Assembly (NCBI RefSeq): GCF_000307265.1
Contig: NZ_DF158896.1
Coordinates: forward strand, 1-21,314
Reading direction: 5' to 3'
Source: Oscillibacter ruminantium GH1
GTDB taxonomy: Bacteria; Bacillota; Clostridia; Oscillospirales; Oscillospiraceae
DNA: 21,314 nt
How positions within the stretch are numbered: position 1 is the first letter of the stretch; every line of letters starts with the position of its first letter. Positions 1,409 through 4,734 of the stretch are shown one piece after another. The position numbers and the translations under genes were made by a program. The notes under the pieces are model-generated. The model was not told the DNA's origin. It saw only the letters and a list, made by a program, of their open reading frames with translations, and ran no database searches.

Positions 1409-1523
1409 CTGCGCTGCAGTACCGGGTATGCCGGAGGAGAGGCAGTGGTAAGCCTTCGGGCGCGGGTTCGACTCCCGATTTTGGCAGCGCCGAAAGGCGT
1501 GGGTTCAAATCCCATTTGCGCAG
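1409..1523 (+). ncRNA. tRNA-like structured element with no anticodon arm (D-loop AGTGGTAA, two T-arm motifs TTCGACT and TTCAAAT, a GAAA-capped hairpin, and an outer stem ctgcgc/gcgcag). Either a Y-RNA-like tRNA mimic or degenerate tRNA 3' halves.
   Basis: Manual folding: ggc-AGTGGTAA-gcc at 1441-1454; cggg-TTCGACT-cccg at 1463-1477; gcgcc-GAAA-ggcgt at 1487-1500; tggg-TTCAAAT-ccca at 1500-1514; acceptor-like gccggag(1430-1436)/ttttggc(1479-1485); outer ctgcgc(1409-1414)/gcgcag(1518-1523). There is no anticodon stem-loop and no CCA. Confidence 0.4.
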
Positions 1524-1772: not shown

Positions 1773-2879
1773 ATGAAAATAATTATTAATGAAAACGAGA
1801 GAGGCTTCCTCTTCAAAAACGGCAAGTACCTCCGTACTCTGGAGCCCGGAAAGCATGTCCTGCTGGGGCGGGGCTACGACGTGGAGCGGATGCCGGTAGA
1901 CACTTATCCCCTGTGTGTGGTGAACTGCGGTCTGGATACCCTGCTGGCGGACCCGGTACTGGCCAAGCAGCTGACCGTGACGGAGGTAGCCGACGAGACT
2001 CTTGCACTGCACTACATAGACGGGCGCTTTCAGGAGGCCCTCACCAGCGGCCGGTACGCCTTCTGGGCCATCAGCCAGAGCCACGAGTTCCGCACGGTGG
2101 ACATCCGGGAGCCTATGGCTCCTGCCGAGCTGCCCGCCGCCCTGTTTTCCAAAATGCCCGACGCCCTCTATAAGCGGGCGGAGGTACTCTCCTACCAAAA
2201 AGGCCGCCTGAGTGTGGGTGGAAAATTTGTCCGCCTGCTGGAGCCCGGCACCTATTTCTTCTGGAATAACGGCGCCAAGGTGGAAGTATCTCTCGTGGAT
2301 ACCCGCTTGCTGCAAATGAACGTTCAGGGGCAGGAAATGCTGACGCAGGATAAGGTGGCTGTGCGCATCAACTTCGTATGCCGCTATCGTATCGTGGACT
2401 TCGTCAAGGTCATGACTGAGATTGAGGACTACGAGGAGCAGATTCGGGTACTGGCCCAGCTGGCTCTGCGGGAGTATATCGGGCGCAGCCGCCTGGATGA
2501 ACTGCTGGAGAACAAAGAAAGACTGGCTGATTTTGTTCTGGCCCAGCTGAAAACCCGGGAAGAACAGTGCTTCGTCACCTTTTTCGATGCGGGCGTCAAG
2601 GACATGATCCTTCCCGGCGAGGTGCGGGAAATCATGAATACCGTTTTGATTGCTGAAAAGCGGGCTCAGGCCAATGTCATCACCCGCCGCGAAGAAGTAG
2701 CCTCCACCCGCAGCCTCTTGAACACCGCCAAACTCATGGAGGAAAATCCCACGCTGCTGCATCTCAAGGAGATGGAGTGCCTGGAGAAAATCTGCGAGAA
2801 TGTAGGCAACATCACCGTCAGCGGCACCGGCGACCTGCTGGGACAACTGGCGGGCATTATGAAAGGAACTATCACATGA
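1773..2879 (+). CDS. SPFH/band-7 (stomatin/prohibitin/flotillin/HflKC) domain protein. The N-terminal beta region is tandemly duplicated and no transmembrane segment is obvious.
   Basis: ATG 1773 preceded by aggatggag. SPFH-type core (VAVRINFVCRYRIVDF...IRVLAQLALREYIGRSRLDELL...GVKDMILPGEVREIM...AEKRAQANVI). The stop overlaps the rtcB start (ATGA). Confidence 0.75.
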   Translation: MKIIINENERGFLFKNGKYLRTLEPGKHVLLGRGYDVERMPVDTYPLCVVNCGLDTLLADPVLAKQLTVTEVADETLALHYIDGRFQEALTSGRYAFWAISQSHEFRTVDIREPMAPAELPAALFSKMPDALYKRAEVLSYQKGRLSVGGKFVRLLEPGTYFFWNNGAKVEVSLVDTRLLQMNVQGQEMLTQDKVAVRINFVCRYRIVDFVKVMTEIEDYEEQIRVLAQLALREYIGRSRLDELLENKERLADFVLAQLKTREEQCFVTFFDAGVKDMILPGEVREIMNTVLIAEKRAQANVITRREEVASTRSLLNTAKLMEENPTLLHLKEMECLEKICENVGNITVSGTGDLLGQLAGIMKGTIT

Positions 2880-4084
2880 TTACCGTACAGGGCGCTTACA
2901 ACAGCGCCGTTTGCTATACCGACATGCTGGAAAAAGCGGCGGCGGGACAGATCAAGGCCGTCTGCGACCAGAGCGCTTTTGCCGACTGCAAAATTCGCAT
3001 CATGCCGGATGTCCACGCCGGGATGGGCTGCACCATCGGCACTACCATGACCATCACCGACAAGGTGGTGCCCGGCATGGTGGGCGTGGACATCGGCTGC
3101 GGCGTGGAGACGGTGTGTATTGCTGAAAAGGAGCTTAACTTGGCCGCACTGGACGCCCTCATTCGCCGGGAGATTCCCTGTGGGCGGGAGATTCGGGATA
3201 CCGAGCACCAGTTCAACAAGGAAATAGACCTGACTGAGCTGCGCTGTGCAAACCAAGTGAATCTAGTGCGTGCCTGGCGCAGCATCGGCACTCTGGGCGG
3301 TGGTAACCACTTCATTGAGGTGGACCGGGGTGAAGATGGCGCACTCTATGTGGTGATCCACTCCGGCAGCCGCCACATTGGCAAAGAGGTGGCGAAATAC
3401 TATCAGGAGGAGGGCTTTCACGCCCTCTGCGGCAATGCCCGCTTCCAGTTGGACAAGGCCATTGCCCGCATGAAGGCCGAGGGGAACACCAAGGAAATCC
3501 ACAAGACCATCAAGAAGCTGAAATCACAGCGGGCCATGCTTACGCCCATGCCCAAGGATTTGTCCTATGTGGAGGGCAAGTTATTTGAAGACTATATCCA
3601 CGACATGAAGCTGATCCAGCGCTTTGCCGTCCTCAACCGTCAGGCCATGATGGAGGTGCTGCTCACCGGCATGGGGTTCACCGCTGTCGAGCGCTTCACC
3701 ACCATCCACAACTACATTGACACCGAGGAAATGATTCTGCGCAAGGGCGCGGTATCGGCCAAGCAGGGCGAAAAGCTGCTCATCCCCATCAACATGCGGG
3801 ACGGAAGCCTTATCTGTATGGGTAAAGGCAACGAGGACTGGAACTGCTCCGCGCCTCACGGAGCGGGGCGGCTTATGAGCCGCAAGGACGCCTTCGACCG
3901 CCTCTCCATGGAGGAATACAAGGAGCAGATGTCCGACATCTTCTCCACCTGCGTGGTGGCAGACACCTTGGACGAATCTCCCATGGCCTACAAGCCCATG
4001 GACGAAATCGTGGCGCAAATTGCGCCCACGGCGGAGATCGTCGACCGCATTAAGCCAATCTATAATTTTAAATCCACGGAATAA
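2876..4084 (+). CDS. rtcB: RNA-splicing ligase RtcB (3'-phosphate/5'-OH RNA ligase)
   Basis: Hallmark RtcB motifs PDVHAGMG, GGGNHF, HNYID and SAPHGAGR. The product is 402 aa. The start overlaps the SPFH stop by 4 nt. Confidence 0.9.
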   Translation: MITVQGAYNSAVCYTDMLEKAAAGQIKAVCDQSAFADCKIRIMPDVHAGMGCTIGTTMTITDKVVPGMVGVDIGCGVETVCIAEKELNLAALDALIRREIPCGREIRDTEHQFNKEIDLTELRCANQVNLVRAWRSIGTLGGGNHFIEVDRGEDGALYVVIHSGSRHIGKEVAKYYQEEGFHALCGNARFQLDKAIARMKAEGNTKEIHKTIKKLKSQRAMLTPMPKDLSYVEGKLFEDYIHDMKLIQRFAVLNRQAMMEVLLTGMGFTAVERFTTIHNYIDTEEMILRKGAVSAKQGEKLLIPINMRDGSLICMGKGNEDWNCSAPHGAGRLMSRKDAFDRLSMEEYKEQMSDIFSTCVVADTLDESPMAYKPMDEIVAQIAPTAEIVDRIKPIYNFKSTE

Positions 4085-4102: not shown

Positions 4103-4426
4103 ATGCAAGAACTGATCCAGCAAAAACTGTTGGAAATCGAGCGAACCCAGCAGGTTAAAATCCTATATGCCGCCGAGTCGGGCAGTCGCGCGTGGGGCTT
4201 TGCCTTGTCGGACAGCGACTACGATGTGCGCTTTCTCAACCTGCGCTGGGCGGAGGGCTATCTGAAAATTGACTGCCCACGGGATGTCATCGAATGGCGG
4301 TTGGACGAGTCCACAGAGGACATGGCAGAGGAGCTAGACACCCTGTTTTTTAAACTTCTATCTGCGGAGGGGAAAACAATATGCGGTTGTGGACCATTCA
4401 GCCTGCACACATCTATGAAGCCTTAA
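4103..4426 (+). CDS. Pol-beta-superfamily nucleotidyltransferase N-terminal domain (GS...DSDYD motif; resembles the RNA-repair-associated predicted NTase family). Probably the 5' part of a frameshifted gene.
   Basis: KILYAAESGSRAWGFALSDSDYDVRF matches the minimal NTase signature. A strong RBS agggagg lies 10 nt upstream. The last ~15 codons look unconstrained and overlap the next ORF. Confidence 0.6.
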   Translation: MQELIQQKLLEIERTQQVKILYAAESGSRAWGFALSDSDYDVRFLNLRWAEGYLKIDCPRDVIEWRLDESTEDMAEELDTLFFKLLSAEGKTICGCGPFSLHTSMKP

Positions 4427-4734
4427 AAGGCGGGTATGTCTATCGCTGTGACCCGGAAAAAGCGCAGCTACTTACAGAATCCAGTTTTGGCCCCGCCTAT
4501 GATTGGTTGTCTGAGCAGATGCGCCTGCGCATTGGCGCGCCACCTGACGGGGTCAAATATCCCGTGTGGGCATGGCACACACTGGAGTGGAAGCACAAAC
4601 GCCCGGACCTGAGGCGAGTAGAGTTTTGTACTTATCGTGCACAGCAGGTGTGCATGGAGATAGAAATCCCTGATACGCAAGTGCTTCTGAGCAACGAAGA
4701 TATGGTAAACTTATTTCATATATTTACTGAGTAA
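4381..4734 (+). CDS. Hypothetical protein (MRLWTIQ...). It may be the C-terminal part of the nucleotidyltransferase, reached by a -1 frameshift.
   Basis: Has its own RBS ggagggg, but overlaps the upstream ORF by 46 nt in a different frame. The combined length of about 210 aa would fit a full-length NTase of that family. Confidence 0.45.
   Translation: MRLWTIQPAHIYEALKGGYVYRCDPEKAQLLTESSFGPAYDWLSEQMRLRIGAPPDGVKYPVWAWHTLEWKHKRPDLRRVEFCTYRAQQVCMEIEIPDTQVLLSNEDMVNLFHIFTE

Follow-up and report, generated by a model that had tools for sequence, protein, structure and literature searches.

Genes and conserved sequence at the SPFH-rtcB locus

We analyzed a 21,314-nt stretch of Oscillibacter ruminantium GH1 DNA (contig NZ_DF158896.1, positions 1 to 21,314 of the forward strand; hereafter the window), in which an initial annotation had singled out positions 1409-1523 as a tRNA mimic without an anticodon arm, located upstream of an SPFH gene and rtcB. 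This segment sits in the intergenic region 1330-1772, with + strand genes on both sides. Downstream are genes encoding a 368-aa SPFH/Band-7 protein (1773-2879, +; Pfam Band_7, E = 2e-29) and, directly after it as the annotation had indicated, a 402-aa RtcB RNA ligase (2876-4084, +; Pfam RtcB, E = 5.5e-61), the start of which overlaps the SPFH stop by 4 nt. Relatives share both this overlap and the 402-aa length of RtcB. Upstream lies a WYL/WCX regulator gene, rightly described as truncated: Pfam identified only the C-terminal WCX domain in its 174-aa open reading frame (ORF; 783-1307, +). Its intrinsic terminator (1292-1322, +), a 14-bp stem followed by a T-run, is kept in close relatives, and sets the 5' limit of the next transcription unit.

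We have almost no doubt that the annotated segment is the middle slice of a ~410-nt multi-domain structured RNA, which extends from about 1365 to 1772. The element is conserved, syntenic and structured, and is absent from Rfam 15. The SPFH protein has thousands of relatives. For comparison we used 80 loci from one-genome-per-species contigs, the SPFH proteins of which are 54-61% identical to that of the window; these are mostly from Oscillospiraceae and other Clostridia, and also represent Coriobacteriales, Lentisphaerae and Erysipelotrichaceae. Addition of 15 closer metagenomic loci (SPFH 65-88% identical) brought the total to ~95 related loci. The Band_7 and RtcB arrangement of the window was also seen across the 80 genome loci. 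In 69 of these 80 loci, a perfect tRNA-type T-arm, typically GCGGG-UUCGAAU-CCCGC, precedes the SPFH start by 240-520 nt on the same strand, and in ~22 of those 69, as in the window, another T-loop hairpin lies immediately 5' to it. The element holds the same place upstream of SPFH in ~80 of 92 loci representing many genera and different families and phyla, and the 5' domain, the T-arm part and the 3' rod described below all co-occur in 70 of 92 leaders. The boundaries 1409-1523 proved too narrow, as the element reaches well beyond both of them in the ~95 related loci. The sole hit of a metagenome pattern scan was a copy of the window (L092). Phage and plasmid collections contained no blastn match, and two viral pattern scans yielded no hits and 14 hits, respectively, the latter all attributable to chance.

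Conservation runs from a promoter-like site to the start codon, both in the alignment of close relatives and in that of a main-family subgroup. The promoter region (1326-1358, +) contains the conserved TTCCATGA at 1326-1333 with a -35-like ATGATT, as well as an extended -10 element, TG-A-TATGCT, at 1350-1358. TGnTAnnnT is kept at the extended -10 position in both clades, and the equivalent site of one relative (L016) scored as a promoter with a TG extension. These signals would place the transcription start near 1365. No + strand terminator was found between 1330 and 1773 in the window, or before the SPFH start in L016 and L044. Taken together, the promoter-like site and the lack of a terminator before SPFH indicate that the RNA is read through as the 5' leader of the SPFH-rtcB operon. 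At its 3' end, the Shine-Dalgarno region (AAAGGAUGGAG, 1757-1767, +) and the SPFH start codon (1773-1775, +) are likewise conserved in relatives. The whole 408-nt leader folds better than every shuffled sequence (z = -3.0), and this fold reproduces the 3' domain derived by comparison. The single-sequence fold of 1400-1535 was not better than shuffles on the + strand (z = -1.2), so that comparative data were required to determine its structure. Two ORFs overlapping the leader (1330-1554, +; 1375-1674, -) were considered as protein-coding candidates and rejected, since neither has a Pfam match and 37-nt unit indels break the frame.

Domains of the leader RNA

The 3' half of the leader (1568-1747, +) is bounded by an outer 11-bp helix, formed by GAAGUUGUACC (1568-1578) and GGUACAGCUUC (1737-1747), that encloses a middle hairpin (1581-1619) and a rod. 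The outer helix, assessed by eye, is present in the minimum free energy fold of the leader, shows compensatory changes in L081 and L085, and stops 10 nt short of the Shine-Dalgarno sequence; its main-family equivalent is 13 bp. The 125-nt 3' rod domain (1624-1728, +) is a long irregular hairpin defined using alignment A3, which contains 63 distinct rod sequences of near-constant length (121-138 nt). Its helices in the window are Pa (1624-1628/1724-1728), a clamp (1630-1632/1720-1722), Pb (1636-1645/1710-1718), Pc (1653-1656/1702-1705), Pe (1666-1671/1688-1693) and Pf (1674-1677/1682-1685). Between them are internal loops that are invariant in the family, namely GGAUACCG (1646-1653) opposite CUNAA (CUCAA, 1706-1710, in the window), GCCG, and CCARA opposite UUCCGC. 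Compensatory changes were observed for 27 of the 31 pairs called by RNAalifold. Overall, 87.2% of the alignment cells were paired, compared to 61.5% for shuffled and ~40% for slid alignments, and the covariation score was 0.670 versus 0.209 after shuffling, with none of 500 shuffles scoring as high. In 77 of 96 leaders the anchor [GA]GAUA[CU]CG, represented in the window by GGAUACCG, lies no more than 260 nt before the ATG, most often at about -121 to -160.

At the other end of the leader, a hairpin termed P0 (1381-1398, +), in which GGGAC (1381-1385) pairs with GUCC (1395-1398), was identified by eye; its pairing is preserved as GGGGC/GCCC in L085 and L086, again by eye. It is followed by the 32-nt 5' domain (1401-1432, +), which we defined using alignment A4, consisting of 77 distinct sequences including that of the window. 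This domain comprises an outer GGU/GCC helix (G1401-U1403 with G1430-C1432) with bulged A1428 and U1429, an inner 4-bp helix (G1404-C1407 with G1424-U1427), and an apical triloop hairpin, ACUGC-GCU-GCAGU (1408-1420). Across A4 the domain was 99.1% paired, with compensatory changes at five pairs, while slid controls were 20-65% paired. The covariation score of 0.365 exceeded the shuffled value of 0.109 and was reached by none of 500 shuffles.

The two most invariant strings of the family, one from each of these domains, are complementary to each other: GUAUGCC (1426-1432) and GGAUAC (1646-1651) can form 6 bp with one bulged G, and the pairing reaches 8 bp in L003, L007, L011, L026 and L035, which have 5' domains of "type B". 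It would compete with the local 5'-domain helix and could therefore act as a switch, or else represent a tertiary contact; as both strings are invariant, the complementarity gives no covariation signal.

Between the two domains the window carries two tandem copies of what we call the elbow unit. Unit 1 (1445-1477, +) consists of UGG (1446-1448), the hairpin GCC-UUCG-GGC (1452-1461) and T-arm 1, CGGG-UUCGACU-CCCG (1463-1477), and unit 2 (1481-1515, +) of UGG (1482-1484), the hairpin CGCC-GAAA-GGCG (1488-1499) and T-arm 2, UGGG-UUCAAAU-CCCA (1500-1514). Thus, the two T-loop hairpins noted initially are real: the 13-mer GGGTTCRANTCCC occurs three times in the window (in tRNA-Met, at 1464-1476 and at 1501-1513), against 0.00 in 100 shuffles. 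The GNRA-capped hairpin also held up, as 1488-1499 covaries in relatives. The proposed D-arm, in which GGC was paired with GCC, did not, since GCC (1452-1454) forms the 5' side of the GCC-UUCG-GGC hairpin and only UGG (1446-1448) is conserved. In an alignment of 18 units (A2), 98.4% of the cells were paired and three pairs were compensated, a result matched by none of 500 shuffles. The tetraloop of the unit alternates between UUCG, GAAA and UUAC in relatives, and its stem varies from 3 to 5 bp, being extended and compensated in L088. The duplicated module is the whole ~37-nt unit, including the conserved UGG, the tetraloop hairpin and the T-arm. Copy number is three in L081 and L082, two in the window and one in L083 and L085-L091, in leaders that are otherwise closely related; gain and loss of the 37-nt module are evidently recent. 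In L095 the first T-arm is half-deleted. By analogy to G18 and G19 of tRNA, each UGG would dock into its own T-loop.

After the last T-arm comes a closed acceptor-like hairpin, GCGCA-GUAA-UGCGC (1518-1531, +). Across 13 clade members, which include the compensated variants GCACA/UGUGC and UGGUA/UGCCG, an average of 4.9 of its 5 pairs is retained. In the main family, a hairpin of at least 5 bp starts 0-1 nt after the T-arm in 43 of 50 sequences, with 27 distinct strands and, at each position, four to six types of pair. MAFFT combined with RNAalifold recovered only the T-arm when applied to the region containing the T-arm, this hairpin and the D element, because the loops of the hairpin vary in length; register-anchored counting was used instead. 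The initial annotation had instead joined one strand of this hairpin to the 5' domain, as an acceptor-like pairing of 1409-1414 with 1518-1523. Although perfect in the window (6/6), that pairing averages 4.8/6 in 13 close relatives and is 2/6 in L088, and both of its strands sit in local hairpins, at 1518-1531 (4.9/5) and at 1408-1420 (4.2/5, inside the 99%-paired 5' domain). Comparison of orthologous loci, one of the checks proposed at that stage, thus revealed covariation, but in the local hairpins rather than in the long-range pairing.

The next hairpin is not the same in the main family and in the window. The main family possesses a small CCAG-UGGA-UUGG hairpin after the acceptor-like one, whereas the window instead has an anticodon-like hairpin lacking GG. 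This anticodon-arm mimic, ACAGC-CUGUUAA-GCUGU (1533-1549, +), exposes a 7-nt loop (1538-1544) containing the "anticodon" GUU (1540-1542) and a UGU resembling U33-G34-U35. The absence of an anticodon arm therefore holds inside 1409-1523 but not for the RNA as a whole. Hairpins of at least 4 bp with a YUGUNAN loop were found in 29 of 89 distinct leaders, compared to 1.4 (maximum 5) in shuffled sequences and 5 on the reverse complement. The triplets displayed by these loops were GUC (14), GUA (8), GUU (7) and GUG (2). GUC, GUA, GUU and GUG are the anticodons of the four queuosine tRNAs, and U33-G34-U35 is both the recognition element of tRNA-guanine transglycosylase and the site of cleavage by colicin E5.

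Possible roles of the leader

In L088, L090/L091 and L094 the leader RNA and SPFH are present without a downstream rtcB, indicating that the RNA is coupled to SPFH rather than to RtcB. The next genes in these loci encode a polysaccharide deacetylase or WapI, or are oriented the other way. No transmembrane segment is predicted in the SPFH protein, which is thus considered soluble. Foldseek searches with its AlphaFold2 model matched stomatin, HflK/C and prohibitin cages and no other folds. Residues 1-176 (1773-2300) form three five-stranded beta repeats with a predicted local distance difference test score of ~90, each bearing ERGxLFxNGKxxxxLxPGxH, which resembles the start of the Band-7 domain.

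The presumed task of bacterial RtcB operons is to mend tRNA and rRNA cleaved by ribotoxins. Coupling to SPFH without rtcB, the soluble cage-type fold of the SPFH protein and the activity of RlaP, which in operons of this kind restores nucleotides to the ends of cleaved tRNA (PMC12776372), lead us to favor, at about even confidence, the view that the RNA is a tRNA-mimicking, protein-binding leader or cofactor of a soluble SPFH/RtcB repair system. The RNA would be the cognate partner of the cage-forming SPFH protein and/or of RtcB, with Ro60 and its Y RNA as the closest parallel. The rod and the 5' domain would anchor the protein, while the tRNA-like modules would offer a tRNA-shaped surface to tRNA-directed enzymes such as ribotoxins, RtcB and RlaP. 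Within that surface, the closed acceptor-like hairpin would stack after the last T-arm and the anticodon mimic would present the U-G-U-N loop of the queuosine family. With the folded part stopping ~10 nt short of the ribosome-binding site, an occupied leader would probably also exert feedback on how the operon is translated, so that the RNA may serve regulatory as well as scaffold roles. A related proposal exists: as described by Wang et al. (bioRxiv 10.1101/312249), Burroughs and Aravind (Nucleic Acids Res 2016) predicted a Band-7-associated tRNA-like RNA (b7a-tRNA) beside RtcB. In that account it "strongly resembles an authentic tRNA" and was regarded as functionally redundant with YrlA; it had been put forward as the cognate RNA for the SPFH scaffold, and was never validated.

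Several observations weigh against this reading. The bases of UGG and of the T-loops are invariant, so the tRNA-like tertiary fold gives no covariation signal, and a crude count of UGG motifs versus T-loops displayed only a weak, noisy correlation (r = 0.31). The N-terminal beta repeats of the SPFH protein gave no informative Foldseek match and no recognizable RNA-binding fold. The anticodon-arm mimic is missing from ~2/3 of the leaders, and its position differs between clades. Although b7a-tRNA is said to resemble an authentic tRNA, ARAGORN called a tRNA in only 2 of ~80 related upstream regions (L042 and L048). Only 14 of 50 main-family members can form a 7-bp tRNA-type acceptor pairing, which is GU-rich; in the window it reaches 4/7. 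Lastly, we infer the equivalence of our element to b7a-tRNA from the secondary description cited above.

The chief alternative, which we judge possible though on the unlikely side, is a purely cis-acting sensor, in which the 5' domain and the 3' rod form a riboswitch-like fold that senses a ligand or an RNA. A variant, included in the same estimate, holds that ribotoxins acting on Asp, Asn, His and Tyr tRNAs cut the anticodon mimic, that RtcB reseals it, and that the state of the leader sets expression. Such a sensor would account for a long 5' untranslated region with a strongly covarying domain of constant length (121-138 nt) and invariant internal loops, for the anchoring of the rod within 260 nt of the start codon, mostly about -121 to -160, with no terminator before the gene, and for UGUN loops that match the target of colicin E5 and the recognition element of tRNA-guanine transglycosylase. 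The complementarity of the invariant GUAU(G)CC and GGAUAC, in competition with the 5'-domain helix, would provide a possible switch, and in a subset of loci the 5' domain could alternatively pair with the strand that follows the T-arm. However, both strings of the proposed 5'-3' pairing are invariant, we found no terminator/antiterminator pair and no resemblance to a known riboswitch in Rfam, and the anticodon mimic is missing in most leaders. Moreover, pairing of the conserved upstream loop with the Shine-Dalgarno sequence was no better than in controls (-8.1 kcal/mol for cognate pairs, versus -7.5 for non-cognate and -7.3 for shuffled ones), which argues against its sequestration by that loop.

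Upstream of the operon, five tRNA genes (Asn, Met, Trp, Asp and Thr; 33-572) were identified by ARAGORN and Rfam. Close relatives possess two WYL-type regulator genes upstream of the leader, encoding proteins of ~414 aa and of ~305 aa with WYL and WCX domains; the window retains the last 174 codons of the second, and its tRNA cluster occupies the place of the remainder, so the operon has lost its presumed regulators. On the other side of the operon, a 107-aa N-terminal fragment of RlaP and an overlapping partial DUF3841 ORF were identified by Pfam at 4103-4734. The RlaP proteins of L084 and L089 have 252 aa; in the window, the distal end of the repair operon looks decayed. One related locus also carries an unrelated match to group II intron D1-D4 (RF02001, 34.7 bits; L048, 6437-6661, - strand), ~2.4 kb downstream of its SPFH start.

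The initial annotation had offered two explanations, a Y RNA and a tRNA integration scar. According to the first, the RNA is of the YrlA type, a tRNA-like module without an anticodon arm whose terminal stem binds a Ro60/Rsr protein encoded elsewhere. We consider this very improbable. The order of T-arm, closed acceptor-like hairpin and small UGG hairpin in the main family does fit the YrlA module (PMC4201824), and YrlA is said by Wang et al. (10.1101/312249) to occur occasionally beside Band-7 genes. On the other hand, the terminal stem is not conserved, the hairpin after the acceptor-like one is anticodon-like in the window, the large additional domains are foreign to Y RNAs, and neither the window nor 15 related loci gave an Rfam hit to such RNAs. 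No TROVE/Ro domain was found in the 18 larger window ORFs (of 81 listed) that were scanned against Pfam, in agreement with the initial remark that the window lacks a Ro60/Rsr gene. What survives of the Y-RNA idea is a non-tRNA, tRNA-mimicking RNA tied to an RtcB operon; the assignment to YrlA does not. The second explanation, a functionless relic in the form of attL/attR tRNA 3' halves or decayed tRNA pseudogenes, is scarcely credible despite the five-tRNA cluster 800 nt upstream, the truncated or deleted regulators and the fragmentary RlaP gene, given that the conserved syntenic position rules out an integration scar: the RNA occupies the same place with compensatory changes in ~80 loci of different families and phyla, relatives with intact regulators carry it too, the duplicated repeat is a whole unit of UGG, hairpin and T-arm rather than a tRNA 3' half with an acceptor strand, no integrase domain was found in the neighboring ORFs scanned against Pfam, and an intact tRNA gene occupies the site in 0 of 96 loci. 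The initial observation is thus partly confirmed and its interpretation partly supported.

We tentatively go further, with somewhat less than even confidence, and propose that the RNA represents an undescribed ~400-nt, three-domain class, the "SPFH-rtcB leader", distributed in Clostridia and at least in Coriobacteriales and Lentisphaerae, of which only a tRNA-like fragment was glimpsed in 2016. In this class, the 5' domain and rod would form a sensing or docking platform, and the elbow and queuosine-type loop mimics would lure or sense anticodon nucleases, thereby linking tRNA damage to the expression or assembly of a soluble SPFH cage with RtcB. The work provides a covariation-backed structural model for the presumed RNA partner of SPFH-type systems, outside the RtcR, Ro and Y-RNA systems, and evidence that the RNA greatly exceeds a tRNA mimic in size. 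Its features lend themselves to experiment: modular tRNA elbows, a UGUN loop mimic that is a candidate target of colicin-E5-type nucleases or tRNA-guanine transglycosylase, and a rod with invariant loops that ends beside the ribosome-binding site. If correct, the proposal would assign a role to an SPFH cage protein that is soluble, in a family otherwise known from membranes. Such experiments are feasible, since the RNA family, which is common in gut Clostridia, is present in cultured strains, including Oscillibacter valericigenes and Robinsoniella peoriensis. Locus L044 comes from O. valericigenes Sjm18-20 (AP012044.1, region 469655-478740) and L061 from R. peoriensis.

Comparison with known RNAs

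Rfam models were run at the gathering threshold and at E <= 10 against the window, 15 related loci and the L016 leader, and in these sequences nothing matched over the element beyond T-arm fragments. In particular, the Y-RNA and tRNA models that were to be checked gave no match at the gathering threshold over 1409-1523. With relaxed settings, the only tRNA-clan match was that of tmRNA to a T-arm (15 bits), and mascRNA (RF01684) matched 1459-1522 with 16.6 bits. This weak similarity is the best in Rfam, and the mascRNA/menRNA family shares with our element a tRNA-like fold lacking a normal anticodon arm. With a score of 16.6 bits compared to a gathering threshold of 42.5 (E = 1.3), it amounts to a resemblance only. 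The mascRNA/menRNA family is eukaryotic, and its fold is a signal for processing by RNases P and Z.

Two further known classes were considered and rejected. An ordinary tRNA (RF00005) is excluded, as the model gave no match, the five tRNAs called by ARAGORN lie at 33-572, and acceptor pairing is possible in 14 of 50 members; in keeping with the expectation that tRNA-finding logic would pass the segment over, neither ARAGORN nor Rfam called a tRNA in 1409-1523. The T-box (RF00230) is likewise a long Firmicute 5' leader with tRNA logic and T-loop motifs, and GGAUACCG vaguely resembles the T-box UGGNACCGCG. However, the T-box model matched neither the window nor 16 related leaders, no + strand terminator and no terminator/antiterminator pair were found, and the full T-arms of our element mimic tRNA whereas a T-box receives it.

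The operator of E. coli thrS is a tRNA-mimicking, autoregulatory mRNA leader of ~100 nt without T-arms. As in that operator, an anticodon-arm-like hairpin occurs here in a structured 5' untranslated region, before the ribosome-binding site of a gene with a tRNA-handling product. In contrast to it, our leader possesses T-arms, and no pairing that would sequester the Shine-Dalgarno sequence was detected.

YrlA resembles our element in placing a tRNA-mimicking module in an RNA encoded within an RtcB repair operon, and in combining a helical part, presumed in our element to bind protein, with a tRNA-like part. According to Chen et al. (2014, PMC4201824), the YrlA module begins with the T-arm and continues with a closed acceptor-like stem-loop and then a D-arm, an order encountered in the main family. 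In the window, the T-arm and closed hairpin (1500-1531) are followed instead by the anticodon-like hairpin (1533-1549), the UGG elements lie 5' of each T-arm, and there are multiple T-arm units and an anticodon-arm mimic. YrlA differs further in its conserved domains, its terminal Ro-binding stem and the Ro60 gene that accompanies it, of which the scanned ORFs contain none, and no YrlA model matched.

The most likely identity of the element is the b7a-tRNA of Burroughs and Aravind, to the extent that this RNA is characterized by Wang et al. (10.1101/312249); Rfam has no family for it. In ~28% of the distinct family members (L042, L048 and 12 others), GYGUAUG of the 5' domain can pair 7/7 with the strand after the T-arm; ARAGORN called the resulting GU-rich cloverleaf tRNA-Asp(GUC) or tRNA-His(GUG), and it is an alternative to two local helices that have covariation support. 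The two ARAGORN calls, together with the 14 members compatible with a cloverleaf, suggest that b7a-tRNA and our element are the same RNA, seen in the former case through tRNA-finding tools. In the literature searched, which covers b7a-tRNA through this secondary account, neither the 5' domain nor the 3' rod is described, and the Breaker-lab motif catalogues searched do not mention rtcB, Band-7 or SPFH; the full architecture appears previously unreported, with the tRNA-like part alone seemingly predicted before. As far as the secondary account allows comparison, the two RNAs differ in three respects. The window copy exhibits perfect T-arms and an anticodon-like arm but no cloverleaf by ARAGORN or Rfam, covariation favors local hairpins over a tRNA acceptor stem, and the RNA is ~400 nt long with a 5' domain and a 125-nt 3' domain. 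They agree in being tRNA-like non-coding RNAs beside a Band-7/SPFH gene and RtcB, for some members of which a GU-rich cloverleaf can be drawn. The element is thus a member, in a tandem-unit layout variant, of a poorly described and unvalidated RNA class.

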